Shown piece by piece: positions 18,501-52,388 of a stretch of 64,000 nt of DNA. Origin of the DNA: Microthyrium microscopicum (taxonomy: Eukaryota); the NCBI GenBank assembly GCA_010405405.1, contig MU004233.1:881122-945121 (forward strand), read 5' to 3'. Both the position numbers and the translations under genes were made by a program. Position 1 is the stretch's first letter, and each line of letters begins with the position of its first letter. The notes below the pieces were generated by a model. It was not told where the DNA came from, did not search any database, and saw only the letters and a list, made by a program, of their open reading frames with translations.

Positions 18501-19566
18501 TTCTAAATATCTTATAAACCTCTTCGTTATAATAAAAGGACGTATTATCTATAATAATAATACTTTAAGAAAGAGGATAAGGCTAATAGATATCTAGAAG
18601 CTTATTCTTATACTACTAGGCAAAGCTATTATCGTTACTATTAGCTTCGTAGATATTTATTAATAGGATACTATTAACGCCGTATACTAGTAGAATATTA
18701 TACTATTTAGTAGTATTATTAATATTCTTTAATTTCTACTTATTAGGCGTTAAGAAGCTTCTAACATTAGGCTTAATATCTAATTTACTCTACCCTCTTA
18801 TTCTTAAGATATTAGCAATCCTATACCCTACTTTATTAACAAAGATAAGCTATTTAGAAGTATATTTTGATATATAGATATAGTATTTATAATAAGCTTT
18901 AGCAAAACGCTAGGCGGCGATAACCTTTAACTATAAGATATAAGAATATATCTATTAGTATTACTTTATTACTAACCTTCTTTTTAGTATAATTATACCT
19001 ATTTAGGACTTAAGATATAAGCTATTAACTTACTACTAGTCTAAATGTATTAATAATAAACTCATGTATCTTGAATTATATTAAATTAGGTTAATAAAGT
19101 AAATATTTAAATAATACGACCTATATATTATAATCTAATACTAGAAGAGGGCCTAGATATAGTTTTATAGGATCAAACAAGCTTCTAATCTTTAGTATTT
19201 AACGCTAGTATTTTATAATATTCTTATAGCATTTAATAGCTCTAGCGATAGATATCTTATAGTAGCTAAGCTTAATTATATCTTATATCTATTTTTAGTA
19301 GTAGTTATTAAGTTTATATAGTATATTAAAGACTTGTTCGTTGTAGTGTTAAAATACTAAAAATTAAGATATTTAGTAAAAATTTAGCTTTAGGATAGAT
19401 AATATTATAATTTAGGAAGATAATAGAGTTGGTAAGATTAATCTAAGGGGCTACGCCGCTAAATTTGTATATTAATATACTCTTTAGATCTTCTCGCCCT
19501 CTAATCACGCCCTGAAGCGCTATTTTATAATTTAGGGGGGGGGACAAGTAAGCTCTTGTAGCACTG
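15574..19566 (-). mobile_element. RIP-inactivated Tc1/mariner-superfamily DNA transposon, 3993 bp
   Basis: TIR CAGTGCTACAAGAGCTTACTTGTCC at 15574, with its reverse complement ending at 19566; TA duplication at 15572-73 and 19567-68; interior very AT-rich with TpA excess and CpA/TpG depletion; no ORF of 60 aa or more in the track. Confidence 0.95.
18240..19200 (-). pseudogene. RIP-mutated Tc1-type DD34E transposase (boundaries approximate)
   Basis: Minus strand reads LIFVNKVG (from LIFVDEAG, ~18830-18850) and SIIIIDNTSFYYNEEV...KFLLLYYLNFNSIKEFFNNLK (from SVIVMDNASFHH...FLPPYxPDFNPIEEFFxDLK); 34 residues separate the D from the inferred E. Confidence 0.85.
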
Positions 19567-19582
19567 TAGAGTATTGTAAGTA

Positions 19583-19894
19583 CCGTCAAAAAACAGTGAA
19601 TTGAGCAAAGTGAAATGTGGCGGTTTGGGCGTCTTTATGGCTTTTTTACATACCTTATTTTATCTCTAATTTTCTTTGCTGTTTCCCTAGAAAAGTGCTT
19701 TAAATTTATAGAATAAGATACTTCTAATAATCCTACTAATCTGGCCAAAAATCTGAGCCAAAATCCGTTATGATTTCGCCGTTTTCAATTGTTGAAAGAT
19801 TGACTAGCAAAATGATGGACGCCTTTTTGGACGCCACCCTGAATGACGGGCTTCTATTGGCCTTCACTTTGCTCAATTCACTGTTTTTTGACGG
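19583..19894. mobile_element. MITE (312 bp), Tc1/mariner/pogo-type, TA target duplication
   Basis: Perfect 32-bp TIR CCGTCAAAAAACAGTGAATTGAGCAAAGTGAA (19583-19614 and 19863-19894) flanked by TA on both sides; no ORF. Confidence 0.92.
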
Positions 19895-22371
19895 TATTTT
19901 GAGTACAGTGCAATTATATCGACGAGCACAAGTTTTATGATGATACTCTACTCCATGATATCACACTGATAATCTTTTGATATATATCGCGAGCATCATC
20001 ATGTTCTGCCAAACTTCTCTGCATTGCTGACGATAATAAACTTTTAAGTCTAGGCAGTCATGGTTTTTGTGGTTTGTTTATTGAAGAATTGCAAATCTTG
20101 AAACACCTTGTTCGTCAGCAGGCGACGTGGTTGCAATTTGAAATTGGCCCTTAACCTGGACAGTGGGTGGTCAAGGACTCAAGGGTGGTCCAGCGTCACA
20201 AAACCTACTACCTCTTACTTCAATCAAATAATTTTCGTGTCAACCGGAGGAAACTCCAGAAATGGGCTTGAACATTCATTTTCGTAGCTACTTACGCGCG
20301 AAAACACCTTCGGCGATGACAGAAAATGGCAATCCTCAAGAGCACTAGAAAGAAACATACCTACCAAACAGGTTCCAACATGAGCGCGTTTGGATACGGA
20401 AAGACTTGAAAATGCGGAGGATCGACCATAAAAAGCAAGATAATTTAAGGCTCGCGGTAAGAACCGGCGGCGATTGCGCAAGGATTTTTGAGACTTTTCT
20501 TTGGAGATTGCGGGATTCCAAATCCAATGCAGCAGGTCAAGGTCAGGTCAACCGAATCCTCGGTAACAATCAATGTTGCATTGGCGAGCAAGCGAGTTGT
20601 GCGCCAGAACTGGCGGGGTTGAGTTGAGAAACGGAGGAAGGGAACAGATGTGTAACCTTTCAGGGTTCTCTATGGATACACCTCCTTCATCGAATTCCGA
20701 GGATAGGCGATGTACACATCATGGAGGATGCAAGTGTGGTGAACAGGAGAATGGCAGCCAGTAGGAAGTATGCGATTGATGGCGAAGCTAGGCGTGTATC
20801 ATTGGAAGAGGAATTGTGTGTCCAACCAGGGCGACGCGTTACGAAAGCATTATGGAGGTAGTTATATTAAGTGTTGCTTGTAAGGGAGATGGATGTGCAT
20901 GATGTTTATATATGTTAGCTCGGCGGGCGAATGTCAGAGTTTGTAAGTCTGAACGACAAAGCAGATTTGAAACGTGTACGTGTCGCAAAATTCGGAGAGG
21001 AGAGAATTTCTTGGTAGACTGAGCCCGAGATTGAGTAGATGATTGGTATCAAATCAAGACCGTTGCGACGAAGCCATATGTACAAGAACTTTACTTGATG
21101 TTGATACTTTAAAAGATGACTGAAGACTCGAGCTTTAACATCAAGTTGACTGCTCTCACAGCTCTAGTGCTCTAGTGCTCTAGTGTGGTTGGAGATGTAA
21201 CTACTAGGTACCTACTACTTTAGCTGCATATACGTCTTTCTTAGACATTCATTTGAAACATAAACCATACATTGGTAGTTGTCGGTATCGGGTAGTACAG
21301 GTATTCTAATACAGTAATCAGTGATGGACTTGGGAAATGATAATTGAGCAATATAAAGTTACTTTAAGAATAAGAATAAGAATACCAGAAGTCAAGTCAG
21401 GTCCCAAATATGAGTTAATCAAGCTTGTCCAACCGATAACAAAGAAGCAGCGGTTTGACGAGTTACGATGGAGAATAGACAGGAGTTTACTCCGGATCCA
21501 AATCAAGATTGAAGCTGGAAATAAAAGGAAATACCACAAGGAGAAGTGCTCTAGTGGTAGTAGTGGCGATAAGTGCAGATACTATTCAAAGTGGCGTCTT
21601 TACTTGACAGTTGACAGACTGACGGCAGTTTGGAGACTCGAGAGTATTCTATATTCAAAATACTGGTCATTTTATACATACAGTATCCTACTCTAGAGTT
21701 GTACTTGTAGTTGTAGGTATTTTGTCGATTATCGCCTATCTCCTCTCTACAGTATCTGCTATCTCCAAGGCTCAAGCTTGCACTGGTCGACCGACAACCC
21801 CCCCTCCAGACCCCCAGACCAAAACTCTTTGGCTCAACGCTCGTCCCTCAGGTCGCTTTCTCACCACATGCACCAAAACTCCAAAGCCAATTCCCCATCC
21901 CCCCAGCCTTCACCCTGTCTTGCCCCATATCCATCTATCCCCCATTCCCTCTAAACCACCACCAACGACCTCAATCACCCCCATCCCGCACCCAATTCCT
22001 ACCTTAATACACGATCCGACTCGACCTCGTGCTCGACCTCTCTCTCGCGCCCTCATAATTCAACGACACGTCTTGAAACTGCCTTGCCATGCACTTCCCC
22101 GCTTAAGCGAACGCCAACTCAACCACCCACCCTTCTATCGTCGAGTCCACTTTGTCCCATCCGAACCACCCGCATTTTCCTTGTCCATGCCTGCGCAGGC
22201 CCGACGTTCTCGAATGGACCCTGCGCAGCTTCTTGCGACGCAGTAGCTCCAACTTCACCAGTTGATCACACCAGCTGACTGTTGCAAAACCCGCCCAATC
22301 CACTCAGCGAGTTGCTGCTACCTTCCGGCTTACAAACTTTGCCAATAGTGCACCTTTCCGGTATCTGAAGC

Positions 22372-34375: not shown

Positions 34376-37300
34376 ATGGCCGCTACGGGCCCCGGACACG
34401 AGCGACCTTTGCCTGATCTGCTCGTGCCTCGACCAGCAAGCCAAGTTAGCCAAAAACTGCGGCCTCTCCACGGCAATAATAATCAGAGCTATGCCTTGAA
34501 CCGCGACTTGGCCCAACACGGCCGCCCCCATAATCCCTCGACCACTTCCCATCGCCGACGAGCTTCATCTCTGCTCGCGAATAGCACATCTGGATCAAAC
34601 AGCAACTCCAAAAAACCCTCTGGCCGCAAAAATACCTCGAGTCGCCAGGGCAATACTGGCTTCATCACCTTGCCTTCAGTTGGCAAGTCTGCGCTCGATT
34701 TTCGCCCTGGACTCCCCGTTCCGCCGGCCATTCGCATGGCTCGGGATACGGATAAACGCGTAAATGCTACTACGACGGGTAGCGACAGAGGAAGAAATGC
34801 TTTACGTTCACAAACCGAGTTGGGAAGAGGAGGACGACAGTTTACAGTCGGCAACATCGGACATAATGGATTGATCTATCTTCGGTATGCAAAGCCCTAG
34901 CAATCAAGCCTCCACGGGTGCTATTTCTAGAATTCATTGTATACTAACATTTATCTGCGCGTTAGACCTGTTATTCGTCCCGCGGCTGAACTACAGGCCC
35001 AAAGAGCACCACTCTATCCCTTTGACGATTCTCTCCTTCCACCCGACCATGGACCTTCCGCCGCGGGCAATCGACGGCGCAATAGCTCCATTGGACATGA
35101 AAGTGTGATATCCAGTATATTTTCGGTGTGGAAGGTGGATGATAAGCAAAAGTCAAGATCTAGTATAGAGATACCCCCGCCTACGCATACCAGAAAAGCA
35201 TCTACACATATCCGATCGCATTCCTTTTCCACAATCGATGAACGACCGAGTATAAGTCGCCAAGGAACATACAAAGTGGTCATTCGATCAAATTCTTCAC
35301 ATCGACGACGAGCAAGAAGAGCGTCAAATGAGAGTCCCGATGTCCCCATGGTACCGGATTCGCTCAACGTTAATATTCCTTCGTTTCGGCTGGGAAAACC
35401 ACATTTTGGTGCCAGGGGCAGCGCAGGAATCAGGAGTTCCATCAACACAAGGAATTCGGAAAAGCACACAAGATCAAGGGTGGAACCAGGGTCATCTCAT
35501 GATATAAACCCCCGAAACCTGTCGACATATGGTTCACATAACAACAATGTGCCACCACCTCTTAATCTAAGACATAGCAGCTCTGATGTTCTAGTTCCGA
35601 GGGCGCCAACTCTTACGCAATCACCGAGATTGTCTTTGTCTGAATTCGCCATGCATGTATTCGACGATTTATCCTTTGACCCTGATGATTCTTCGGTGGT
35701 ACGGTTTTCACCAACGTCAGACGATATAGTCGCTGCTACTCCTTCACGACTCATCGCACACATCACGTCGCCGAGTTTTCTGGATTATGAACTGTTGTCC
35801 GACTTTTTCCTAACCTTCCGAGCTTTTCTTCTTCCCGCGGACCTGGTCTCGTTTATGTTAGCGCGATTACGTTGGTCCGTTGAACGAACTGACGATTTTG
35901 GTCGAATTGTACGTGTGCGGACATTTGTTGCGTTGAGACATTGGATTCTCAATTATTTCTCCGATGATTTCGCGCCAGACTTTGCCTTGAGAGTACACTT
36001 TTGCGACCATGTAAATGTGTTATTCCAAGACTTACAACGGAGATCTGACGGCGGAGCTGGAGATCTGAAAATAATTGGGGAGCTTAAGAAGTGTTGGCGG
36101 AGAACATGTGCTATGTTTTGGCCAACTGGGAATGCCACTGCGGCGATTGATGAGGACATCTTTCCTGGAGGCCGGTTCGAATCAATCTACTGGCGAGGCG
36201 AGGAGGACATTCAACAAGCTGAGACGGCTGAAATCGAGGTTCCGCAAATTGTGACTATTCAACGCAAGAACTCCGAAGGTGCGAAACATCAAGTCAGGGT
36301 CATCGGCCGACAGTCCGTCAAATCCACGGTCCATTCAGCTCGTGCTTCAACGCCACAGATTTCGCCGACGAGCATTCAAAGTCTGCACGTCATTTCATGT
36401 TCGATACCTATCAAGCCCATCTATCGGACGGAACCTTCAGCAACGGCACCGCTTTTTCCACATCCTGTTCTTCGTCCGCTCACACCGGCCTCCAATGCGG
36501 CATACCCTACAGCTCGACATAAACGTAGTGTCAGTTTCAGTGATGCTTCTCGTGATGGCCGACCTTCTGGGGTCACTCAGGAGGAACCATCCGAAAAGCC
36601 AGAGGCCATTGCTGAAGAACACGAAGCCGCTGCTCCGGGAGGTATTGTACACGGGGCTCTATACCAGCCAACCAGTGCATACTTTGAATATAAACCACCG
36701 GCTCAAAAATCAAATCCTCTCACCCTCCAAGTCCCAACGGAAAAAGGCGATCATGGACCCCTGAGTCCTTCTCGGTTAGGGTCCAATGGTGATGGTGTGA
36801 AAAAGCTCTTTGGTAGCATGCGAAGGGCACTGAGCAACAATTTGGGACTCATGTCGCCGACTGGGACGTCTAATAACCATAACTTTTCCTATTCTGCCGA
36901 ACCGCGAGACCACACGTCGCACATTGACGTTGTGCAAGCCCCTGGAGCTCGCCCTGGCCCCAAAACTCAACTGCGACTTGATCTTTTGTGTCTCGCGGCT
37001 GGCAATAGATTTGAAGTGGCTGTTGCCGCGGAGCGAGAGGGAATGGACAGTCCAACACAACATGCTGTTTCTGGAATTCCGGGACTTCATCTGGATCCCA
37101 ACATGCTTTCTGCACTCAATTCTAGTGAAGCTCGATATCATATGAACCGAAGTGTCACCGTTGGAAGTAGATCGATTGTCATTGTTGACGATACAAATCC
37201 AGATCTTCCTGTTATGTCTGGAGCATTGAGTCCTGAACCTGGATCCAACAATCCTACCTCGCCTCGAGGCCTTCGATCACCTTATCATCCTCGCGGTCTT

Positions 37301-39805
37301 CACTTGTCTAGCGATCCAGATGATACGTCGGGCTCACGCGACTCAAAAGGTCGTATCACTCCCACCGCGCCTCTCCGCACCCGCAGTCAAGGACCTCCAG
37401 TTTACATGCCCGGTATGGCAAAGAAATTGTCGACCGGAGAAGTCTATATCCCAACGGGCTTCAAGAAAACAGACTCACGCTTGATGGAGACTGATCGATT
37501 AATTGTTGCTCGTTCTTCTCGCGATATCTTTCGAAACTCCATGCGGTCTGCGTCTTCTCCTACTTCCACTCTACGTAAGTATGCATCATATCATAGTGGG
37601 ATTGCTAGTTTCGCACGCACGAGCTCGGCACAGAACGATAATTCTACCGATCGAGCAAACACAAAATCGCCTGAACCCGAGGCTTCGTCCGACCAGCAAC
37701 CTGTACGGCAATTGCGTAGGAGACCCGGTGGAAACCTCAAGGCGGTCAGCAAGGTCCATGATCTCGAACCAGAAATGCGGAGACGTCATTCGGTAGGGTC
37801 CATGTCAACGATCTCCAAGTCTGGTCGTTCTCTCATGAATTCTTTGATAAGTCCCATGGACGCCAAAGGTGGCGCAGAGTCTGCCCCTGAAGACGATGGT
37901 GATGATGACAAGACAGAGAAGGGCTCGATACGGCGTTCGAAAATGAAAAAGAGTAGCAAGAAGTCCATCTCGCTTATCCAGACTCACTCATCCCAGCCAA
38001 ATCTCCGCCCTTCCTTTGAAGCGGAGGTTGCCAAGCTAAAAGCCTTGCCAGACGATGATGACGATGGCGATGTTGAAAACACCTTGTTGAAGCTTGAAGG
38101 CAAATATGAGAAGAAATCGCCCGAATCAGCTCCACCACCATCGACCCCGATTAGTCTCTTTACACCTCTCGGTCCCGAGGAGCCTGAAGAGGAGAAGCAT
38201 CGCAGACATCATGAGCATGTTGAGGATATTCATCCGGATCATCCTTTGTATGAACTCACTGATGACCATGCTCAAACTAGAAGCATACTTTACCTTTCTG
38301 GAACCACTAACATGACACCACATAAACGAAACCAGTCGAACGCCGATTCTATTGTACCTTACTCTTCTATTCCTCTAATGGAGCGAGAGGGGATGCCATC
38401 TACACCTCTGCGCGTTCGAAATCCAGGCACAGTATCGATAGGGGGCGAGGAGGATCGTGACACTGCTCTTAGAATTGACTCTGGTGCAACACCACCAGTA
38501 CAAGATTCGAAAAAAGGAGCCAGTCAGCCACCACAGACTCCGACTCAGCCTCGAGCGACGAAAGCAAAAAAGCGACTTCCCAAACTCAAGTCTCCTGCTG
38601 GAACCTCGTCCTTCTTACTCGATGATGCCGACGAGTTGAGTGATAATGCATCGGATTCGTCTGACAGTGAAGACGTACGCAGCTTCTTTGACGATGAGGC
38701 TATCGAGGAAGAGAACATAGGCGCTCGACTTGGTCTAGATCCACCCAGACGACTGGACACACCTCCGCATATGATCATTCCATCCTTTGATACACCTTCT
38801 CAAGATTCACCAGCCTCACCGATTCGTCCTAAGCATCATTCCAAGGTCGCCTTACCAACATCACCAGTAGTCCCCCTTGACCAGATGCCCACCGTCCGCA
38901 TTCCAACTCCAACCAAACCACCACCAACCATCGCCGAATCCCCCATCGACTTCAACGAGAAACATCCCCATTTCCACAACAAACCACCCTCTTCCCTCTC
39001 CTCCGACACTCCGCCTGCCCAACCCGCCCATCTCCCATTCATCCTCGCCTACCCTGCCGACCACCTTGCCCAACAATTCACCATCCTTGAGAAAGACGCC
39101 CTTGACGAACTCGACTGGCGCGAACTCATCGATCTCCGCTGGAACCAATCCCCACCACCCGCCAGCGACTGGGTCGCCTACCTACGCACCCCCGACCCCT
39201 TTGGCGTCGGCCTTGTCATCGCCCGATTCAACCTCATGGTCAAATGGGTCATTTCCGAAATCCTGCTCACCGACGCTCCACCCGAGCGCGCGCGCTGTAT
39301 CATGCACTACATCCGCATCGCCGCCCACTGTCGTCGCCTACGCAACTTTGCCACCATGTACCAAATAACAGTCGCACTCCTCAGCGCCGACTGTGCACGT
39401 CTAAAGCACACGTGGGCCCTAGTGCCAGCAGGCGAAATCAGTGTATTGCAAGACTTGGAGCGTGTGGTGCAACCATTACGCAATTTCCATAATTTACGCA
39501 TGGAGATGGAAACAGCCCCGACGGAAACGGGATGTATACCCTTCATTGGGATATATACCCGCGACCTGGTATACAATGCACAAAAACCAGCAGTCATCAC
39601 CAGTGCACCGCAGAACGAATATGAGCCACTCGTCAACTTTGAGCGCCATCATACCGCTGCAGGAATCGTCAAAGGTTTGCTGCGGCTACTAGAGCAGAGC
39701 GGCAGATATGCATTCACGCCAGATCCAGTTTGTCTGGCACGCTGTTTGTGGGTTTCGGCTCTGGAGGAAACTGAGATTCGGCGACGTGCGGAATTGTTGG
39801 AGTAA
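34376..39805 (+). CDS. LTE1: LTE1-like Ras guanine-nucleotide exchange factor (intron 34885-34965)
   Basis: RasGEF-N region (SDFFLTFRAFL...VRVRTFVALRHWILNYFSDDF), long low-complexity linker, C-terminal RasGEF domain (AQQFTILEKDAL, GCIPFIGIYTRDL); start codon inferred. Confidence 0.8.
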
Positions 39806-40810
39806 CAACCTCCTCGAGTTCTCTTCGCACCACATAGTACCATCTGTTTCAACTCTTGTTATTTTATTTTTGGGCTTAATTTTTTTTCGTTTGGACTTGT
39901 TGGCTATAGGAGATAAGAATATACCCCTGCTTGTGCGTGTGGAGAAGACTAGAGTAATGTTTTGCTTGCGTGTAGCCTGGCGCTGGCGAAGCTTGGACGT
40001 GTTGAGTAATGTGGTTTTTATATAATACCCTTTTTTATATGATGTTGACAATCTCACTTGCATATGTAGCGCTCTTGTAATTGATCTTACGTTTTTCGTA
40101 TAGTTGTTCGCTTTCGTCTCTAGTTACAATTGTATCACGCTGTTGTTTAGCCCGCGATCAACGTGCTGTTGTCCAGCTCCGTTCACCGTAAACAAAGCCC
40201 CTTTTTTTCGTTTTCGTCAGATTGGCCAGCCACGACCTTGCCGAAATATGAATAGTGCCATACGGGTAATCACACCGCGGCATCAGTCCGATTCAGTGTT
40301 TGCATGCTCGTTGTATTTAGCCCTTCATTGTACTTAAGTCATTGTCACTGTTGAGGGCTGCGTACTGGCATTGAGCAAAAAGATTATAGACTGCTAGCTC
40401 ATGCGGTAGGTAAGTATGCTTGGGAGAATCAGATTCGTGTATTCGTGCGCAATCGTGTCTGGTTTGATGGATATCTTCGTCAAGTAGCGCAATACCGATG
40501 GAGGGTAACAACTGCACTAAGTCACACGTGAATCGGAATATCTCAGCCCTGGACACCGCTTTACGACATATTCTGTTCACCGCTTAAAGTGATTACAATA
40601 CGCTCAAATGTCATTGAACCGAAATACCGCGGTAGATCGACAGTTGACAAGCCAGTCAAACACACCTACATACAGAGATTCCAAACGAAATGATCATGTA
40701 CATATATTAGAACACTGGAGCTTTGTCAAATCTCAATAATCGCGGTACTTTTCGCCAAACCACCGCTTTGGATTCCATCTAGATCCTATTCTTCATTAGC
40801 AAGATGAGAA

Positions 40811-42742
40811 CTACAACCCAAGTCCTCGAAACGCTTGAACAGCAGAGATTATTTCTAACCCCAAGCCAATAACTTTGGAAACGGCAGAAATAGCAGACTG
40901 GAAGAAATCCTTACTTTTTCGCGTTTTGAGCTCTAGAGCCGCCATCTTTTCTCTCGCTGCTTCACGTTCTCTTTCTAACTGTTGCTCTCTCTCTTGATCA
41001 AGTCGCTGCTGCCATTGCCACTTTTCCTCCTGGGCCCTCCTCGCCTTTTCGGCTTCTTCTTTCTGTTGCTCATGATACTTCTCATACATTCGGCGCTCGT
41101 GTTCGATCTGTTGGCGTATAGCTTCGTCTTTCTCAGTCCGCAGTCGCTCTTCGGTCTTAGCAAGTTTCTCGTTGTATGCTGCCTGCTGCCGAGCATTTCT
41201 TTCATTATCTTCACGGCGCTGCTGCTCATGCGCTTCCTGTCGCCTTCTCAATTCCGATTGAAATTCCTTCATTTCCGCATCCCGCGCATCCAGTTGCTCT
41301 TGATATTGGCGTTTTTGCTCCTCCATCTGACGCTGCAGCTCTTTGAACTGAGCCTCTTTCTCTTCGGCAATCTTTTTCAAGTTGGTTCGGAGAGCATCTG
41401 TCTCGGCGTAAGTCTTGTTTATCTTCGCCTCATATTCTATCTTGTCCTTTTGGAGTTGCTCCTGCCACTTTCCATCATTTTCAGAAATGGCCTCTTTCAT
41501 ATCTTCCTTCAAGCCCTCTAGTTTACGCTGGAATTCTTTCCGTTCCCGGATCAACTCCTGCTGGAGCGCCTGTGCCGCATCTGTATCATCGAGATTACGC
41601 TTTTGGTCGATCAGCTGCCTCTGTATGTCTAATATGACGCGAGCCCGCCTTGCATACAGGTTGTCCACTATCTCCAATGCCGATGCTTTGCTGCCGTCGT
41701 GCTTGACCACCTGGCTGCCGCGGTCAACCATACCGCCCCAAAACCCATTGGTGCCAACCAGCTCATCAATTCGCGCATTACCGGTAGCATCTGGGATACT
41801 GACACCGTTGGTATCTTTCCAGTGCGTGGTGGCCAAAATGACTGAGTTCAAGCTACTCTCGCCACATAGTCGCTTGAACATCCGTAGGTTACGAAGTGCT
41901 GATCCGCCCATTCTGACATCAGATATACGGTGCAAGTAGATGATGCCAGCTAGTTTTGCCTTGTTTGAGTAGGCTGCGGCGAGCCAAAAAGCTACATCCT
42001 TGAGAATCTCTGAGTCGGAGCGATTTGTATCATCAAAGCCTGGGGTATCGACAAGAAATACCCGAGTTCCACGATGCACGAAGTAATAAACACCAACAGC
42101 GGAAGTACCTGACTGGTTAGCGCGAAGTCCGGTTCTAGGCCACACATCCAGATTCGTCAAGTCATGAAACACTCACAAGACTGTAGACCGTGTCCAATCT
42201 CAATTTTATCCTCCACCAGCAGTGAAATGAATGTGCTCTTTCCAGCACCCGTGACTCCCATAACAGCGATGATAATATCATTTTTGCTAAAAGCAATGTC
42301 AATCTCACTTACACAGAGATGTAGGGATGGAAACATACGTGAAACCAATAGAGCTTTCCTGTTGCCGAATACTTTCCGATTGTGATTGTTCCAGCCTAGC
42401 GAGGCTGACAGGTTTCTTTGGGATGGGAGGGCCTCTTGGTGGCAGATTTGGCGTGCCGTCTACTTCTACCCGCGCTGCTGGAGGAGGCCGATAAGAAACT
42501 TCGTTGTCGACATAGCGAGATCCTTCTGGTGGGTAGTATGCGTTCTGACCAAATCTCGAACCGTCATCTTGACGAGGAAAGGTAGATGGTTGTGAATGCC
42601 CCTTGGCTTGTCTATGGGTCAAGAGCGTGTCACTAGACAGCCTGCTGGTAACGGCTGGGTCATCCTGATTATACAACCGAGGTGACATAGTTTGGAAGGG
42701 TTCATCGTTCTCCTGCTGTGCCGGGTGAGGGTGTTTGCCCAT
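40811..42742 (-). CDS. AIG1/GIMAP-like (MMR_HSR1-like) P-loop GTPase with long coiled coil; introns 42287-42338 and 42109-42176
   Basis: Spliced G1 IAVMGVTGAGKST, G2 GLQSCT, G3 LVDTPGFDDT, GIIYLHRISDVRM and atypical G4 TTHW; about 250 aa Q/E/K/R-rich coiled coil; amphipathic/hydrophobic C-terminus. Confidence 0.88.
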
Positions 42743-43656
42743 AATGGATATACTGACGTGCGTGCCACAACAAGTAAAAAGCACTCAACGGATATATTTT
42801 CAAAAAGATTTTAGAAGCTTCTCAATGATGGATGAAGAGACAAAGAGGCTAGACCTTCGTTTTCTAGACCGTTGGGCATGGCTCGAGGCTACGCCCAACG
42901 ACCGCATTTGGTCAATATTTCTCACCATACAATCCCATTTCTGCAACCGAATTGGTCAAGGCAACAAGCTTCCGATGACCTGCACTTAGACTAATGGTGC
43001 TTTTTGGAAGCTTGTATCATACGACACCATCATTTCATTAAAGCTGCGATCTGGACAGGTCACACAACATGTCCTTCTTAATGTTCTTTTGCTTATCGCA
43101 CCAATGACATGCTAGCATTCCGCTCAAGGTGGGACTGTTTTCAGCTACTATTTACCTAGAAGGGAAGATTATTGACCGGTATGCCACTTCTTCTAGATGC
43201 GGGTATATCATAGGCTATAGCCTCGTAACATCTGCACGCTGCAAGTGGCATCACATTGAACACCACCATTCAGGAAGTCGGAGACGGACACGCGTAGCGA
43301 TATCTTCGAGATATGTGCCTAGAAACCGAGACGTGGTTCAATCACTGTGAAGTGCTCCGAATGGACATCACTACATTCTCGAGCTCACTCAGCCTAACCA
43401 CTTACCGAAGAGACGAAGACGCTCTTCCTAGAATTCCACCTGAATACAATCTCCCAGTGGACTGATATCCATGCTTCTAAGTTGAGTAAAAGAGGGGTTT
43501 GAATCTATCATCTTCACTGCAATTCTTGTATCAATCCTGATGCAGTAATTGCCTATATCAAGAGTCAACTCGTCCCAGCGATATGATCAACCTGATTCGT
43601 TGGATTTGAGAAAAGATTGACACATCGCTGGTACAAAGCAAAATCCTATCCAACAA

Positions 43657-44815
43657 ATGTCGATACCATCTGCATTTGCTCCGTCGCGAGTCTCGGCTGT
43701 AGCTCCGAAACTTTCTAGTATAGTGTCGGAATTACGAAAACGACAAGCAGCGGTTGAAACAGGCCCGTCACCAGCCACCATTGAAGTCGACAAGCTCAGA
43801 AAAGCAGCTCAAGTGGTGGTGGCACTGATGGGCGTAACTGGCTCAGGAAAAAGCTCTTTTATTCGCAGGGTTACGTGCAATGATGATATTCGGATAGGTG
43901 GTGGGCTACAATCAAGTCAGAGTTGTCCCAAGCCAATACAAGGAAAAGATTAACAAAGTTATAGTGACCCAGCAAGTGCAGTCCTTCCACTGTGAGATAG
44001 GCCAAGCTCAATTCTCCCTTGTTGATACTCCTGGGTTCAATGATACCTATATATCAGACACGGATATCCTCAAGGAGCTGGCCAGTTGGCTCCTTGAATC
44101 TTATCAGGGAGGCACCAAGCTAAATGGAATCATTTACCTGCATCGAATCTCAGACACGAGGATGGAGGGATCGTCTCTACGCAACCTACGCATGTTTCGC
44201 AAGCTTTGTGGAGACGAGTTCATGAAAAATGTTGTCCTTGGTACCACATTTTGGGATATGGTGAATGAAGAAACTGGTCTCGCTCGTGAGGCAGAGCTGT
44301 TGGATACCGATGGCTTCTTCAAGGAGATGAAAGCTCTTGGATGCGACGTCGTCCGCATAACTAAAGATCGAGATCAAAATCTGAAGCTTCTCACACGTTT
44401 CGAGAACAGTCAACCATCAGTGATGCGCATACAGAGAGAACTTCTAGAAGGAAAGTCACTTGCTGAAACTGCAGCTGCAGCTACCATTAGCCCGGAAATG
44501 GCTGAGTTACAACGGATTAACAATGTCCAAGCTGCTGATGTTCAGTATCAGACCAAGCGACGTGTGACCATATCCTCGCTTGAGATGCTGCTTACTCGAA
44601 AATTGAGGCAAGATGACTTTGAAAATACGATCGAAAAGTTGGCTACTCACCAGGAACAATTGCGTCAAGAAGGGGAAGAACAAGCCAGAGAGCAGCAAGA
44701 ACGACTTGTTGGGTTACGACAGAAACAGAAGAACCAGGCGCAAATATTTCAGGTACAAATGTCGGAGCTGGATGAAAAGCTAAGACGCATGAAAGCGAAG
44801 GAAAACATGGCCTAA
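43657..44815 (+). CDS. AIG1/GIMAP-like P-loop GTPase with coiled coil; intron 43916-43964
   Basis: G1 VALMGVTGSGKSS, GLQSMT, LVDTPGFNDT, GIIYLHRISDTRM and TTFWD; Q/E-rich tail. The donor GTCAGA is weak but the phase closes. Confidence 0.87.
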
Positions 44816-44971
44816 TCCTGCATCAATATACAATCTAGCAAACACCTTGTTGCAGAGAACAGGCTGGATTATATTCATTGAATCGAGAAATGTGAACATA
44901 ACAATGCCAGGCTTGAGTCTTTACAGAGTCCGTGATACTGTATCGTTAGGTCAGAACACTACTTTGTCTAT

Positions 44972-46490
44972 CTAAACCCTCATCATGACTGCATCTTCTA
45001 CAACCTTTTGCCAATCTGTAACATGGAGAAAAAGAGCCTCAGCTACAGTTACTATGGCTAAAGCAAGAGTGACCCCAACCCACAAGCCCATCAAGCCCCA
45101 CTGAAGCCCAAAGGCTGTCCATATAGACATTGGAAGCGCTATGAGGTAGTAGCACGAGAGATTCACCCACCCCCCAAAAGCTGGCTTTCCAATTCCTCTG
45201 AGGATACCATTGCAACATGCAGCCAGGCCATCGAATAAATGCATGAAAGCCACGAGAGGAAGAGCATTTAGAACCAGGTCGACAACTTCTGGGTCATCCG
45301 TGAAAATTGTTGGCCAAAAAGCGCGAAAGGAGAAGAATAGTGTGCCGCTAATGGCTGAACAGATCAAGGACCAGACAAAGACGACACCGGCGCTGGCTTT
45401 GGCAGAATTGGTTGATTTGGCGCCAATGTGTTGTGCGATTGCGGTTGTGCCGGCACTGCTTATGGAGAAGGGAATTTGCCAGAAAGCCGAGTTGAGCGTC
45501 ACCAGGATAGTTTGCGCCGCGAGATTTGCTGTGGATAGTTGAGCGGATGCTATGGTAAGGACCTCGAAGGCGAAGTATTCAGCCTCTACCATGATGAGGC
45601 CCGGTAAGGCCAGTCTTAACATAGGAGTCCATCCCCCTAAAGCCTGGGAAGTTTTGAAGTGCCATATACTCCCGTTTCCTGTTGCATGTAGGTATAGCGT
45701 GAGGTACGCTGAGACGAGGGTCCAAGTGGCTGCGACTGCAATGGGGGCTCCAATGAAGCCCAAGTCAAGACGCTTGAGAGACATGTCAGCCGTGAACGTG
45801 CTTGAGGAGAGATCTATGATATACCCAAACAAGTAGCCAGCTCAAGAATGCGTTTGTACACGCTCCAACACAAAGTATACCGGTCACTGGTAAAAAGAAA
45901 CCATTGGACGTCAAAATCCGCTTGCCAGCTTCAAATACCACAAATCCAGGTATTGCAAGAACGAGAACTCTCAAATACAGCCCAGCGAGAATGGCGACCT
46001 GGGCATCTGGAATGATACGCGAGACAATGGCGGCGGAAAAGAACCACAGCATTGCTATTGGAGTTCCTACGGCACCTAGCAATATGATCATCCTTTGCAC
46101 ATGAAGTCGAGCTAGTTTTGTATTTCCTGAGCCGCAGGCTTGACCACATAGAGTATCTAGGCTTGTCGATAATCCTTGGAAGACAACGAAGCCTGTGATG
46201 TTTGCTGTCGCGATGGCAATGCTTACTGCCCCGAGTTCGACCCTTCCTCCTGAGCTGATAACGAGCAAGCTGGACATGTTTAGGCAGAATTGTAGCAGAT
46301 TGGCTATGATAAGCGGAATAGAGTATGTTCCGAGCAATTTCGATTCCACTTTCCATCCTGATATCATTCTGACAGTTGGACTCTCGAGCAGTGATGTTGA
46401 TTCCGTAGACTGTGGTAAAACGGGAGGAGGAATTGTAATGACTGAACATGTAGTTGAGCTTTTTCTCGTGGCAGGAGTAGGCTTAAACAT
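44972..46490 (-). CDS. MATE family efflux transporter (intron 45773-45824)
   Basis: ELGAVSIAIATANITGF, GLSTSLDTLCGQACG, AEYFAFEVLT and DGLAACCNGILRGIG; multiple TM helices; a probable 5'UTR intron at 46500-46570. Confidence 0.9.
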
Positions 46491-47510
46491 TTTGAACAAC
46501 TACTTTCAAAGTGGTCAGAGACAGGCCGATTATGAAAGTGATACCCATGGTTGTCGGACTTCTCACTTACCTTTTCTCTATTTCCAACGCTTTCCAGCAG
46601 ATATCTTCGGGCGCGAGTTGTATCCAGAAGTGAGCGATTGACTTAATTCAGACCGTATACTATCAAGTCAATCCATGGGTTTTGCGGTCTAGGTCATCGT
46701 CCTGTCGAACGCTGGACAAAAACGTGGACACATGTCGACTGACAAGAGTTTTAGTCATTTTGACAGTCAATACCGCTGATCGGCGAAGTCCTATCTAAAC
46801 CCGGTGAAACTCTTCGTCAAATGGGTTGTTATATGAGTCGTTTTGCAGTGACCACTCGATTGCTGGTTTTCTCTTTGGTACCATCACTATCAAGCAGCCA
46901 CTACATTGCCCGAAAGAGCTGGTTTCAAGTATGCCTGAATACTAGCTTTCGTTCCAGACCATTTATGTAAGTGGGCAATTGATACATGAGTACTGGAACT
47001 GAGATATATCCCCTTTTAGGATTAGACGTAAAGCTTAGAAATGTTGCAAGAACAATCCTTACCTCTCCACCCGCGGTGCACTGTGAGACTCACTTCCTCA
47101 GCCAGTTCTACTGCAGATGAGCCGGATATCCTTTTTGCTAATCTGAAGGAAAATATACGCGCAAATGTCGAAACTAGCACAGACTGGCTTGAGTGACGGA
47201 TTTCATTGCGCTTCTCACATGTCGACACTGGTTTAGATCAATCGATCGTATTACAGCTTAAAGCAAATTTGATAACAGATATGATGCAAATAATATTGAT
47301 TGTAGCTTGAGATCTCAAAATTGCTTAGATTACTTTACCACTATTGGGTTTGATTCATAGATTCCTCCGCTCCGCCTTTGTTTTGAATGTACAAGCCGCT
47401 AATACAATGAGTAAATACAAATATTTCTATCTAGGATCACGAAACAATCGTCACTCTCGCTTTTTGGTCGTTGAATGGCATGAACAAGTCAGGGGGACTG
47501 CAGTGATGAC

Positions 47511-50275
47511 TCATCGTCCAACATATTTGATCTCAAGCTGTCGAAGAGGTGGATAGGTGAGGATTACAGCAGCCAGTGTGATGTAGTTACCAAGGTCGCC
47601 GCCAGCCGGCGCAATGGCTCTTGCTGCAGGTCCAATGAACTATGTGATATGGTCAGCTTTGGCATCTCATAGTAGGTTTTCAATCCAGAAGCCGGGAAGC
47701 GTATGGTAAGACTTACCCATGTGGTATCCATTCCCAAAAGGGAGGTTATAATTGGCCCCTACATTCCAGATATTTGGCCCTTGGATTCCAGCTATTTGGC
47801 CCCCATAGTATCCGAAGCCGAGATATTCTGAAGCTATTCCTAAATAGGAAGTCCGTGATAAAATTTCATGGTGTTGCAGTGGTACTAGAGCATGATTTTG
47901 GTGTCCAAAGAAAAATACTAAAACTACGCCAGCAGCTTTGAAGCTACAATCCTAAGGATTCTGCAATTTTAGGCGTGAAACCACAAGATCTATGGAACCG
48001 TAACTGTATAACATCTCTTCACCGTTTTTGAAGCATAAAACAGTTATTCCGCAAGGTATCTCGACCTCGTTTTTGGTATAATAATGTTGCAATTACTTGC
48101 TACGAGCTCGTCCTTCACGAGATCTACGCCCTCCGCGTTGTGTTATTAGTTAAGCTGAAGCGGCCTAAACAGCTAGAATTTCGGTGTGGTGTTGAGTTTT
48201 GTTGTGATGACGTTGAGGAATTATTACGCGGGGCTTGACGCTAGTGACTGATTCAATGTTATTTTGCTTAAGCTAAGCTGGTTTCAGCTGCCGCTAGTCC
48301 TGTTTAGGCTAAGATTTCGGCTTCGGGTCCCAGGGGGCCAAATAGCTGGAATCCAAGGGCCAAATATAACCTCCCTTCCCAAAAAGCTCATTCCGAAACC
48401 AATGGCCAAGCTCAAACAACCTGCAATACCCAACGGCATTCGATCCTGATCCTGCCATCCCTCCAGATCGTAGCCGCCGTTTCTAGGTCGGAACCATAAA
48501 GCTTCGAATGCGAGGATTGTGCCAAAGCAGACCGTCCAGTAGCCAAGTAGAGAGAGAAAGTCGACTATGACATCAGACAAATGCTCTCTTCCTCCCCAAG
48601 CGAGAGCCAAACTGATGGCAGCTAGTATGGCATTCCAGACAAAACGTGGGACCGCCATGAAGTGCTTCGCCCAAATTTGAATGGACAATGACGAAGAATA
48701 ATAAATGGCAGTGACACAAGCAACTGCAACGGAGTTAGATTCAAAAGCCAAGTCATTGTTTGATCAACATACCAAATGACAATGAGTAAATAACGCAGAC
48801 GAATTTTGCCCATCCGGAGGGAGCCATGGTAGCTAGAATCAATGCACCTATGCCATTCTCGTCATAGATTCCAGACAAAGTGGTGTTGGTGAGGATGATC
48901 CCTCCGTATTGATTTCCAAGGATGAGAACAAAAACCGTGGGGATGAAGAGACCGATCTAATTTGTTAGTTTAGGACTAAATAAGAGTGCTATCGAGACCA
49001 CAACGCGTTAAAAGGACCAAATCGTCATTTCAGCGTGAAATGCCATCCCGCTGCGTGGTAGAGACCAAGCGCGTTAGGAGCAGCAGTACGCTGTGGTATC
49101 AACACAAGGGAATTTTCATAGGATGAACACGTACCCAAGTCAGCCCAAAAACGAGCCATTTGCTGATATTTGCTGGGTAGTGAACATAATAATCACCTGA
49201 AATTGAAGCCCAGCCAGCAACTTGACCGAAAACGAGAGCAAAATAATTCAACGCTGCGCCAGTTTTGGCTCGACCCGAAGAGTATGATAGACCTGGTGTA
49301 GGCGAGAAATATTTCGCTGACTGACCAAACTGGACACAAAGAAGTATCAAAATCAAAATCCATGCAACCTGTTCGTACTTGTGGATAATGCGGAACCCGA
49401 ATAGAGAGATCATGAAGGAGACCACGCATAAGATGACGATTCCTACAGCGATGGAGACTTTGCCTCCGCTGACGGCGCTTATTAATTGACCCGCGACAAT
49501 GCAGTCAACTGTGCCAAAGCCAATATTGATCAGGATGTTGAGTAAGCCGCAGATTTTGGCGCCCCAGATTCCAAAAGCATATCGAGATACAGCAATTTGA
49601 CGAAGACCTGTTTGAGGGGACAGAGTTGCGGTAAAGGAAGGAATGACAGCGCCAATAGCTGTACCAAAGACAGTAATAAGAATTGAATCGTCGACGGACA
49701 AGCGAAAGACCTAAATTGTTAGTCAGAATTAATGGAAGATGAAAAGTCTTAACCATCAAAGCACCGGAGTAGTCAGTATTCTGGTAAAAAGCTTCCTGAT
49801 GCAATGCCATCATGAAAGCAATTCACCAGATTTCAACGACAATGGAGCTGATGATGAGTCTATGCACTACTCACTGGACCCAAAAGACCTAAGGTGATAA
49901 GACCTGGCGTGATGTTCATTGAGAACCAAATCAATATCATCTAAACAATCTTTGTAAGTATTCTTTCATCATTTAAGGTGCCCAACTTACATTGATGATG
50001 CTTGGAGGTCGACGTTCATCTTCAGGAATGCGATCTGCTCCTGTTGTCTCAATTCCAAACTTCTTGTCAAGCCATGCCTCTGCGGCGTTAAGTTTTCGCA
50101 GGATTGAGATCCGTTCACGCATTTCTATGACCTCCAATTCACCACGACCGTGAGTTGTTTTCTCGACCATGCCTTCGTGGATCGACCCTTGCTCTTCATC
50201 ATGATGAGGTTGGACCTTGGTCTTTATTGAAGAAGAAATTTGAGCTTTGGTCATAGTTGTAGAATTATCGTCCAT
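47511..50275 (-). pseudogene. Purine-cytosine permease (NCS1/FCY2-like), 6 exons, interrupted by a transposon in exon 5
   Basis: Exons splice in phase; motifs GLRQIAVSRYAFG, WASISGDYYVHYP and VPRFVW. Removing 47740-48375 plus one TSD copy restores MSFLGMDTTW, and the last exon reads FIGPAARAIAPAGGDLG...YPPLRQLEIKYVGR*. Confidence 0.88.
47740..48375. mobile_element. Non-autonomous Mutator-like (MULE) element, 636 bp
   Basis: 9-bp TSD TTCCCAAAA at 47731-47739 and 48376-48384; TIRs begin GGGAGGTTATA(A/T)TTGGCCC and contain ~22-bp subrepeats TATTTGGCCCTTGGATTCCAGC. Confidence 0.92.
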
Positions 50276-51181
50276 GATTTGATAGAGCTATAACAACCGA
50301 CAGGATGAGATGAAATTTATGAAGATGAGATTATAAACCCAAGTCCACAAACAGATCCAAAGGGCCAATACTTATAACTTCAAGCATCTTACGCGACATC
50401 ATATTCTGGACTCTCTGACGAAGTAACGAATCTTGGAGTAACTGATAAGAACGAAGCGAACTTGATAGATTCGACACAATCGATTTGTGTAGTCGGAAGG
50501 CGCCGTCGTAGATGATGGATTTGAAGCTTGAGCATACTAGACTGCTACCAGCTGATAACCAGGCGACTGGCAACGAACGACAAGGGCTCTCACTGCTATG
50601 TCGTTACAGGTACCTGTCAAAGCCAGGAGGCGGGATGAACCATGCGCAGCTCTGGGCATCCTATCAATAACAGGCGATGTCTGTGGTTCCTGGTGAAGGG
50701 AAAGAAGCAGATTGGGGCTTGTTTGGGCCTAGCGGTTGGCCTAGAATTGGAGCTCAAATAGTACCTGTTTCGAGACTAGCGCCGCGATAGACAATGTGGA
50801 GTAGATCATAAGCAGGAAGCAGCTTATGCTGAAATTTTGCCTAATCCTAGAACTCTGGTGACAGAGAGAGAGACAATCATAGGATAATTGATTCTCCCAC
50901 GAGAAAGTGTGGGGGAAGGTGTGATCTGAATCATTACCTAGCCGTGGGATTGTGATAATGACCAGTTATGAATTAGTGTTCTATGAACCAGCATCGATTA
51001 TCATTGCAAAGGTCTAAAGATCGAGCTAGAAGAGTTGTCTCCGGTTGTCTGTAGTTTCCGGCAAGAAAATCTGTCCAACGTTGTGGGTTATTTAATTATA
51101 TGCCCCGTAGTCCCCATTACGTTGATCACCGTTTCACTCCTTGAGAACTACTTCCGACCTGCTCAATCGATCATACTCGAA

Positions 51182-52388
51182 ATGGGAATCGAAGAAGCAC
51201 TTTCGCATCAGAGTCGGCTGGACCTTAGAGAGGAACTGCTTGCCGCCAATGACAAATTCATCTTGGAGATCCCAAAAGTTGAGCTTCATGTTCACATTGA
51301 AGGCACTTTGACAGTCGACATGAGATGGAAGTTCACTCAACGCAACAGTGCAAAGCTGAAACTATTTTCAAACGGCCCGGAAATGCACAGTCTGGAAGAG
51401 ATTCAGGCTGCAATGCAAGCAACCATGCCAGACCCGACCCGAATGAACAACAATGAAGAACGAGATATCTTTTTCGAATCGTACTTTGAAGGCTTTCAAG
51501 CGTTGCAGACGAAGGAGGATTACTACGACCTTGCCATGAACTACTTTGAGCAGGCGGCCTCCATGAACGTTCGCTACTGTGAGCCTTTCTTCGATCCTCA
51601 GGGACACACAAGCCGTGGAGTGCACTGGGACGTAATGATGGGCGGCTTCAAAGAAGCTCAGATGGAGGCGGAGGAAAGACTCAATGTAAGCACTTTTCTT
51701 TCTCATGTCTCGAGCGATAATCAAATAACACCACGGATAGATCAAGTCGGGCTGGATCATGTGCTTTCTTCGCGATTCTCCTGTCGAGTCAGCCATGGAA
51801 CATTACAAGGCTGCACTGCCATACCGAGACATGATCGTAGGCATTGGTCTTGATTCATGTGAGGAGGATCGACCTCCGGTGCTTTTCGAAGAAGTGTTTA
51901 CGCTGGCTCGACGTGATGGCTTCAAGCTTACAATGCACTGTGACGTGGACCAAAAGGATACTCCCGAGCACATCAGACAGTGTTTGTCAGTTGTTGCAGA
52001 AGGAGGGTTGGACAGAATCGACCACGGCCTGAATATCTCTGACCATCAAAATCTGATAGATTTGGCATTGAAGCGGGATCTCGCCCTTACTATCTGTCCA
52101 TGGAGTTATTTGAGAATGACAACATATGCACAGCTTGGACCGCGCATTCGAGCTCTATACGATGCTGGGATCAAGATAACCATCAACAGCGATGATACAG
52201 CGTTCATGGACGACTGCTGGATTCTGCATAACATGTTAGCTGCCAAACGCTTGTGTGGGTTCAATGATGGGGACATTCTTGTCCTGGCAAGAAATGCCAT
52301 CAACGTCTGTTGGGCACTGCAGTCGGTCAAGGAGAAGATGCACCAAGAACTTGACATGGTGTACAATAAGTTTTACCCCAACCAATAG
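51182..52388 (+). CDS. Adenine/adenosine deaminase family amidohydrolase (intron 51686-51740)
   Basis: PKVELHVHIEGTL, NVRYCEPFFDPQGH, GIGLDS, DRIDHG and ITINSDD; the usual HxxE site reads HCDVDQ. Confidence 0.9.

Follow-up and report, generated by a model that had tools for sequence, protein, structure and literature searches.

A head-to-head pair of paralogous GTPase genes was analyzed in a stretch of 64,000 nucleotides (nt) from the fungus Microthyrium microscopicum (NCBI GenBank assembly GCA_010405405.1, contig MU004233.1, positions 881,122 to 945,121). This whole stretch is referred to as the window, and all positions are given in its numbering. Gene A lies on the minus strand and gene B on the plus strand, and together they occupy positions 40,733-44,815. 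It is moderately probable that the two genes form a conserved bidirectional module which encodes the long (A) and the short (B) subunit of an undescribed, fungus-wide family of GIMAP/Toc-like GTPases, a septin-related family of the TRAFAC class.

The two proteins are 36% identical over 326 amino acids (blastp, E 9e-54). Scripted translation of the spliced gene models yielded proteins of 586 amino acids for gene A and 369 amino acids for gene B, which are identical at every residue to the database proteins P0001 and P0121, respectively. Both entries are annotated as 'P-loop containing nucleoside triphosphate hydrolase protein [Microthyrium microscopicum]'. The divergent paralogous GTPase genes and the 914-bp spacer at 42743-43656, which had been reported in a preliminary description of the locus, were thus recovered. 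The features of the pair are as follows.

40733..40785, minus strand: gene A exon 4, a mini-exon encoding ..RSRWNPKRWFGEKYRDY and the stop codon; end of P0001 and of the spliced contig
40786..40914, minus strand: gene A intron 3 (129 nt, GTAAGG..AATAG), whose retention would add the hydrophobic tail SKDFFQSAISAVSKVIGLGLEIISAVQAFRGLGL and a stop at 40811-40813
40915..42108, minus strand: gene A exon 3, G-domain motifs from G2 on and a long charged helical stalk
41819-41830, minus strand: gene A G4 motif TTHW, within exon 3
41861-41947, minus strand: gene A signature block GIIYLHRISDVRMGGSALRNLRMFKRLCG, within exon 3
42109..42176, minus strand: gene A intron 2, 68 nt, GTGAGT..AGTCAG, phase 1, its codon position shared with the gene B intron; skipped in a contig of run X1
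42177..42286, minus strand: gene A exon 2, strand 1 and P-loop GVTGAGKS (42235-42258); ends with GLQS plus 1 nt
42287..42338, minus strand: gene A intron 1, 52 nt, GTATGT..TTTTAG, phase 2; skipped in a contig of run X1
42339..42742, minus strand: gene A exon 1, start codon and a proline-rich, predicted disordered N-terminal extension of about 135 amino acids
42410-42430, minus strand: conserved PxxPxKP motif (PPIPKKP) within gene A exon 1
42743..43656, no strand: spacer between the start codons, 914 bp, containing both 5' untranslated regions (UTRs) and the presumed bidirectional promoter
43353..43656, plus strand: gene B 5' UTR, at least 304 nt (the X1 contig starts at 43353), with four upstream ATGs opening upstream open reading frames (uORFs) of 34, 4, 2 and 8 codons
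43657..43915, plus strand: gene B exon 1, N-terminal helix and P-loop GVTGSGKS (43831-43854); ends with GLQS plus 1 nt
43916..43964, plus strand: gene B intron, 49 nt, GTCAGA..TTATAG, phase 1; skipped in contigs of runs X1 and X2
43965..44815, plus strand: gene B exon 2, G-domain motifs from G2 on and a helix at residues 256-368, without a hydrophobic end
44126-44212, plus strand: gene B signature block GIIYLHRISDTRMEGSSLRNLRMFRKLCG, within exon 2
44243-44257, plus strand: gene B G4 motif TTFWD, within exon 2

The uORFs in the gene B 5' UTR may point to translational control. Alignment and gene models confirmed the sequence features which had been proposed to unite the two copies. A and B have in common the G1 motif (GVTGAGKS in A, GVTGSGKS in B), the G2 threonine, G3 (DTPGF) and the block GIIYLHRISDxRMxGSxLRNLRMFxxLCG, and both carry an unusual G4 (TTHW in A, TTFWD in B). 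In both genes a phase-1 intron follows immediately after GLQS (68 nt in A and 49 nt in B). Read-through insertions at the same spot in P0044 of the A clade and in P0130 and P0146 of the B clade suggest that this intron site was retained in both clades.

Outside the G domain the proteins differ. Residues 1-122 of A are proline-rich and predicted to be disordered (predicted local distance difference test, pLDDT, below 50), in accordance with the extension of about 135 amino acids noted before. Residues 348-571 of A are predicted to be helical, and B has one predicted helix at 256-368. The earlier description of these regions as coiled coil was not established by heptad analysis: the A helices are 44-51% charged, and the hydrophobic occupancy of the a/d heptad positions is only 0.36-0.55. 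Part of the helical region may be a single charged helix.

Expression of both genes was examined with contigs of a public sequencing run of unrecorded library type (X1), which contains 76% of the sampled words of the window. Contigs of X1 were aligned to positions 40300-45200. They skip 42109-42176, 42287-42338, 43916-43964 and 40786-40914, all of which are bounded by GT..AG on the coding strand. We infer that spliced RNA gave rise to these contigs, that the sample expresses both genes and that all four introns are real. Co-presence of A and B here means spliced contigs of one run, and the contigs carry no expression levels. A further run (X2), labelled as a different organism, contributed two short contigs at least 99% alike to window positions 42472-42673 and 43719-43990, one of which contains the spliced junction of gene B. 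The X1 contigs have no cover at 42924-43251 of the spacer, and this gap was not used as evidence. The spliced contig with the last exon of gene A is 6,856 nt long and continues beyond 40300, and the gene B contig reaches past 45200 into MatE, which converges on gene B. In these regions (40300-40785 and 44816-45200) transcripts of neighbouring convergent genes may overlap, or the assembler may have merged them.

The pairing of A and B recurs in other fungi. The best matches to A and B have successive locus tags in three further species, namely Orbilia ellipsospora (TWF694_006504/006503), Exophiala sideris (PV11_03317/03318) and Exophiala xenobiotica (H2202_000362/000363). The A and B proteins of Arthrobotrys entomopaga come from contigs of equal length (679,305), and in six more A/B pairs the source contigs of each pair are equally long, down to 4,403 nt. 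A metagenome scan with generic P-loop and G3 patterns yielded 76 loci of the wider family. These copies are distant members (30-52% identity), none of which falls into the strict A or B clade. Of the metagenome copies, 62 had at least 3.5 kb on the upstream side; 23 of these have a divergent family neighbour and 5 a tandem one. On the downstream side 48 copies had at least 3.5 kb, with a convergent family neighbour in 2 and a tandem one in 3. Altogether the 76 loci include 15 divergent pairs, whose G-domain matches lie 716-2263 bp apart. The pairing is thus not unique to the window genome.

A tree was calculated from 290 core regions, comprising 223 of 240 proteins (at least 140 aligned residues) and 67 of 80 locus copies; stop-bearing copies were dropped. 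Each partner forms its own clade, the question to which a gene tree had been proposed as a check: the strict A clade has 52 leaves (support 98), the strict B clade has 36 leaves (support 87), and the two are disjoint. A single split (support 82) parts 9 of the 10 metagenome pairs. A second tree covered 20 pairs, 4 of the 24 candidates having been dropped for short cores; 17 of the 20 are split (support 84). The A-side and B-side distances of these 17 pairs are correlated (Mantel r 0.85, p 1e-4), and r is 0.91 for seven metagenome pairs together with the window pair. A and B are an old duplication retained as a linked pair, as the preliminary description had assumed on the basis of the sequence alone, and they are adjacent in distant fungi. 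Strict orthologues were seen in few scattered lineages, namely Orbiliales, Chaetothyriales, Elaphomyces, Helotiales and Microthyrium, a pattern which reflects either strong conservation with many losses or transfer.

Adjacency of A and B by chance or by recent local duplication, without any joint meaning, is extremely unlikely in the light of these data and was rejected. Tandem and clustered family copies do exist, as the 5 upstream and 3 downstream tandem neighbours demonstrate. However, A and B are only 36% identical, each copy is closer to orthologues in other classes than to its own neighbour, and the adjacency recurs in other species.

Several observations weigh against the interpretation of the locus as a conserved two-subunit module. 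The locus tags of the named species give adjacency of A and B only and not their orientation. The deep split between the A and B sides is moderately supported in both trees (82 and 84). The second tree splits 7 of the 10 independently sampled metagenome pairs, where about 5 are expected by chance, and in three pairs the two members fall on the same side of its split. The Mantel correlation is consistent with inheritance as a unit but is no proof of it, because shared species history alone would also produce it.

Part of this evidence fits a different explanation, in which A and B are co-regulated but independent: they would lie head to head because of a shared bidirectional promoter and would form separate homodimers or homo-oligomers. 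We regard this as rather unlikely, though it is the alternative to be taken most seriously. It is in line with the three divergent pairs on one side of the tree and with the 39 of 62 family copies which have enough flanking sequence and no divergent family neighbour; because of the latter, many family members evidently work without a linked partner. Furthermore, GIMAP7 and Toc34, the top fold matches described below, have been solved as G-interface homodimers. On the other hand, the side-by-side retention of an A-clade and a B-clade member in at least four fungal classes exceeds what promoter sharing needs, the partner distances co-vary, and the asymmetry of G4 (Asp in 10 of 11 B proteins, absent from the A clade) and of the protein ends fits a division of labour.

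Whether the two proteins could form a joint dimer was addressed by structure prediction. The G domains A 125-365 and B 40-280 were folded together with GTP and Mg; only the A-B combination was folded. The interaction prediction score from aligned errors (ipSAE) was 0.84 in all three runs, compared with 0.00 for the best of 3 controls. At least 90% of the contacts were common between runs, and the partner pLDDT was 85. In the calibration, 51 of 78 solved complexes and 2 of 108 mismatched pairs attained the ipSAE mark; in a eukaryote calibration 39 of 65 solved pairs without a like complex and 2 of 126 unrelated pairs did so. In the model the interface of both chains consists of the P-loop, switch I, G3, the signature block and G4, which is the classic G-interface. 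A R237 is placed on the P-loop of B, and B R152 on the P-loop and switch I of A. This position is R or K in 24 of 24 aligned proteins.

From this model a mechanism can be proposed. The G domains of A and B would meet face to face across their nucleotide sites, and the loop RISDxRMxGS of the signature block is predicted to sit on the P-loop and switch I of the partner. By analogy with the GIMAP7 and Toc34 dimers, A R237 and B R152 at the conserved Arg/Lys position would each reach the GTP of the partner and act in trans. Since B keeps the G4 Asp (TTFWD) and the A clade has lost it (TTHW), the A-B dimer is probably asymmetric in nucleotide handling. The asymmetric G4 motifs and ends suggest a division of labour between A and B. 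A would add a disordered proline-rich arm with a PxxPxKP motif resembling SH3 ligands and a helical stalk of about 225 amino acids, and splicing would pick its C-terminus, either the hydrophobic tail (intron retained) or a short basic-aromatic end (intron removed). The likely job of such a complex would be GTP-controlled scaffold assembly on an intracellular membrane.

Three properties of the prediction have to be set against this model. The complex test is blind to which family member binds, as close cousins passed in 10 of 12 cases of the calibration; the structure model may remember the solved GIMAP7 and Toc34 dimers; and the A-B fold carried ligands, which the calibration did not. Because close cousins of a true partner pass, the test gives no preference for a hetero- over a homodimer, which is compatible with independent A and B proteins as well. 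Charge pairing at the interface (e.g., A D197 versus B E154-S156) showed no clear complementarity and was dropped as a criterion. Of the heterodimer put forward earlier, the dimerization of the A and B G domains was predicted with a clear margin over the controls, but hetero- and homodimer were not separable. An A-B heterodimer is plausible on the basis of the model.

The assignment of the family was investigated by profile and fold comparison. Pfam MMR_HSR1 (PF01926) matches A with 31.4 bits and B with 37.0 bits at a cut-off of 21.9, and 10 of 10 scanned proteins pass. Foldseek with the B model (pLDDT 75.4) ranked GIMAP7, Toc34, GIMAP2, GIMAP1 and GIMAP5 at the top (GIMAP7 3zjc, E 5.6e-11; Toc34 1h65/3bb1, E 4e-10), with an identity of 12-19% to the GIMAPs. 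The aligned proteins show no variation in G1 (GxxGxGKS), in the threonine of G2 or in G3 (DTPG). The G4 Asp is kept in 10 of 11 B proteins (TTFWD), whereas the A clade has TTHW followed by T, K or R. G5 was not identified in the aligned A and B proteins.

Two results speak against a closer assignment. Pfam AIG1 (PF04548) reaches 21.9 bits with A and 24.7 bits with B, below its cut-off of 27, and VIA-align ties GIMAP7 (Z 14.9) with Arl2 (15.5), EngB (14.2) and Toc33 (14.2). AIG1 does pass in 2 of 10 orthologues (P0137, 34.4 bits; P0167, 28.7 bits). The AIG1 alignment covers profile positions 3-129 of 212, and the GIMAP7 alignment is the longest one in VIA-align (205 aligned residues, root mean square deviation 3.5). 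A profile search of PDB sequences leaves the family unsettled, because it aligns G1-G3 only and places Der/EngA (1.7e-7) narrowly before GIMAP4 (8.1e-7). Pfam Septin (PF00735) gave at best 20.6 bits at a cut-off of 26.2, with matches in 3 of 10 proteins but neither in A nor in B, and Pfam scans of the separate A and B exons yielded sub-threshold P-loop matches only. With AIG1 below threshold, GIMAP/Toc favoured by Foldseek and the tie in VIA-align, the family is GIMAP/Toc-like but not a demonstrated member of AIG1. The earlier designation AIG1/GIMAP-like is partly supported, by the Foldseek ranking and not by the AIG1 profile; the profile search which had been recommended as a check recovers MMR_HSR1 and leaves AIG1 below its cut-off in both proteins.

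Comparison with the GIMAPs, the best Foldseek matches, reveals a small G domain followed by helices in both families. Furthermore, the block between G3 and G4 is a putative counterpart of the 'conserved box' of the GIMAPs described in excerpts of PMC3100574 and PMC9111091; it occupies the corresponding place, and in the fungal proteins it is predicted at the interface. According to the excerpt of PMC9111091, the GIMAP interface comprises P-loop, switches and conserved box, GIMAP paralogues regulate one another via this G-interface, as GIMAP6 does with GIMAP7, and some of them do not bind GTP. The named partnerships available for comparison are GIMAP2/GIMAP7 and GIMAP6/GIMAP7. Some GIMAPs carry a C-terminal hydrophobic anchor while others are soluble, according to the excerpt of PMC3100574. 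In contrast to the GIMAPs, the fungal G4 reads TT(H/F)W(D), the stalk is far longer and rich in charged residues, the two genes are kept as a divergent pair, and splicing affects the anchor of the long subunit. An excerpt of PMC7053062 states that no GIMAPs are known from representative fungi, yeast among them.

Among the chloroplast translocon GTPases, Toc33/34 and Toc159, Toc34 and Toc33 provide the second-best fold match to the B model. Toc34 is tail-anchored and partners with a longer paralogue. An excerpt of PMC10996617 describes G-interface dimers with an arginine finger for Toc and AIG1 GTPases. Unlike plants, fungi have no plastid, there is no translocon evidence for the fungal proteins, and the sequence relation to Toc is at the level of G1-G3 only (profile E 0.004). 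Septins belong to a related GTPase class; as proposed for the fungal pair, they form hetero-oligomers of paralogues via G-interfaces, and they have C-terminal helical or coiled extensions and membrane-binding helices. A Chlamydomonas septin reached a VIA-align Z of 12.4, beside the weak Pfam matches. However, Pfam Septin remains below threshold, the septin unique element is absent, and fungi have canonical septins besides. The interferon-inducible GBP and IRG GTPases share the arrangement of G domain, helical stalk and lipid anchor, the latter reflected by CaaX-like ends in several fungal family members. Their profile matches (GBP1/2/5 and IIGP) are far weaker than those of GIMAP/Toc, and the fungal G domain is much smaller.

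The C-terminus of gene A required a revision of the gene model. The end SKDFF...GLGL with its stop at 40811-40813, described earlier as a terminal amphipathic helix at the gene end, results from read-through of the 129-nt intron 40786-40914. The donor of this intron, GTAAGG, falls within the K-S-K codons, its acceptor is AATAG, and a GCTAAT in it resembles a branch site. The only contig bridging it is spliced and ends in the mini-exon encoding RSRWNPKRWFGEKYRDY. Therefore, gene A extends to 40733, past the reported start at 40811. Against a tail isoform, no contig of X1 spans 40786-40914 unspliced, although contigs drop rare forms.

Nevertheless, both endings are conserved. A hydrophobic tail following a basic KSK-type motif is present in 25 of the 52 strict A-clade proteins, with a maximum 19-residue Kyte-Doolittle mean of 1.36-2.24 (1.74 for gene A of the window). 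The spliced-type ending WxNPxRWxxGKY is found in four (P0001, P0004, P0006 and P0052). Other A-clade proteins are truncated or have different ends, and the Orbilia orthologue ends in the CaaX-like CVIS. In the wider family hydrophobic tails are encoded without a splice donor at the boundary. Because of this and of the conservation of both endings, we take the tail as a genuine coding feature which the A clade can probably splice away, and a tail-on/tail-off switch in A is possible. Among the B-clade proteins, 0 of 11 have a hydrophobic C-terminus, in agreement with the lack of a hydrophobic end previously noted for B. For the membrane-bound partner that A was thought to be, the hydrophobic end is conserved but lies in an intron which is removed in the only transcript form seen.

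The genes surrounding the pair are listed below.

34931-39802, plus strand: RasGEF protein
44975-46499, minus strand: MatE transporter
49102-49710, minus strand: purine/cytosine permease
50987-52385, plus strand: adenosine deaminase

Within about 8 kb of the pair, no gene of a defence type, such as NLR or HET, was found. Elsewhere in the window, positions 16000-20000 form an AT-rich block (GC content 0.24-0.27) with a TpA/ApT ratio of 1.51 and a (CpA+TpG)/(ApC+GpT) ratio of 0.38, compared with 0.78 and 1.25 for the whole window. By composition it is probably a repeat degraded by repeat-induced point mutation.

The preliminary description proposed a two-component module for immunity or cell death, with an anchored sensor or executor and a soluble regulator directed against non-self. 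In favour of this proposal, the nearest solved folds are immune-associated GIMAPs and the family is large and architecturally diverse, with fusions to WD40, SH3 and ubiquitin-like domains and with variable C-termini including lipid-anchor-like ends. Moreover, the sole literature mention concerns an orthogroup with the Pfam footprint of the family, which a Sordariales NLR survey met and then excluded. Nevertheless, such a function would be very unlikely. The G domain of A is 74-77% identical between the dothideomycete of the window and the orbiliomycetes P0002 and P0003, which argues for strong purifying selection and not for diversification of the immune-receptor type. The neighbours are housekeeping-type genes without any NLR or HET among them, and Toc GTPases and septins have the same fold without an immune role.

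The family to which the pair belongs comprises 1,144 clusters at 50% identity for E <= 1e-30 and 4,301 for E <= 1e-10, and is distributed over Ascomycota and Basidiomycota. A prokaryote scan, which was not exhaustive, gave 3 weak G1-G3-only matches among the 600 pattern matches listed and thus no sign of close bacterial relatives. A full-text literature search found no functional description of the family or of the pair.

Several members deviate in architecture. The proteins P0241-P0257 (Aureobasidium melanogenum, Mycena citricolor, Gymnopilus dilepis, Pleurotus djamor, Decorospora gaudefroyi) contain 2-4 family G domains per chain; in P0241 the first G domain resembles A more closely, and the second B. 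These may be true fusions or merged gene models. Paralogues are fused to SH3, WD40 repeats or a ubiquitin-like domain (P0091, P0094, P0105-P0119; P0096; P0089), and in P0118 of Cladosporium halotolerans the SH3 domain follows the G domain towards the C-terminus. The conserved PxxPxKP motif of the A clade could be an SH3 ligand, which we mention as a lead only. Metagenome loci carry a conserved end domain ..GTNYI..DG..YRC.S..P......F.IF.. or Cys-rich zinc-ribbon-like motifs (L003, L014-L017, L019, L023, L025, L027, L030, L031; L009, L010, L012, L024, L034). In reading frame extensions that ignore introns, poly-Cys ends were observed in L010 and L012, and CaaX-like ends in L024, L039, L048, L052, L057, L064 and L071.

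A wider version of the two-subunit reading would make the pair the founding example of an ancient, Dikarya-wide GTPase machine, the fungal counterpart of the GIMAP and Toc heterodimers. In it a competent soluble B would be recruited by a long A which is degenerate in guanine recognition, membrane attachment would be switched by the intron, and the complex would serve organelle-membrane surveillance or remodelling in defence or stress. In this full extent the proposal is unlikely to hold. The conserved pair of a long and a short subunit offers a compact and genetically tractable entry to the heterotypic use of G-interfaces by septin-related GTPases. If the splicing of gene A operates as proposed, a tail encoded in a removable intron would represent a simple control of membrane anchoring.

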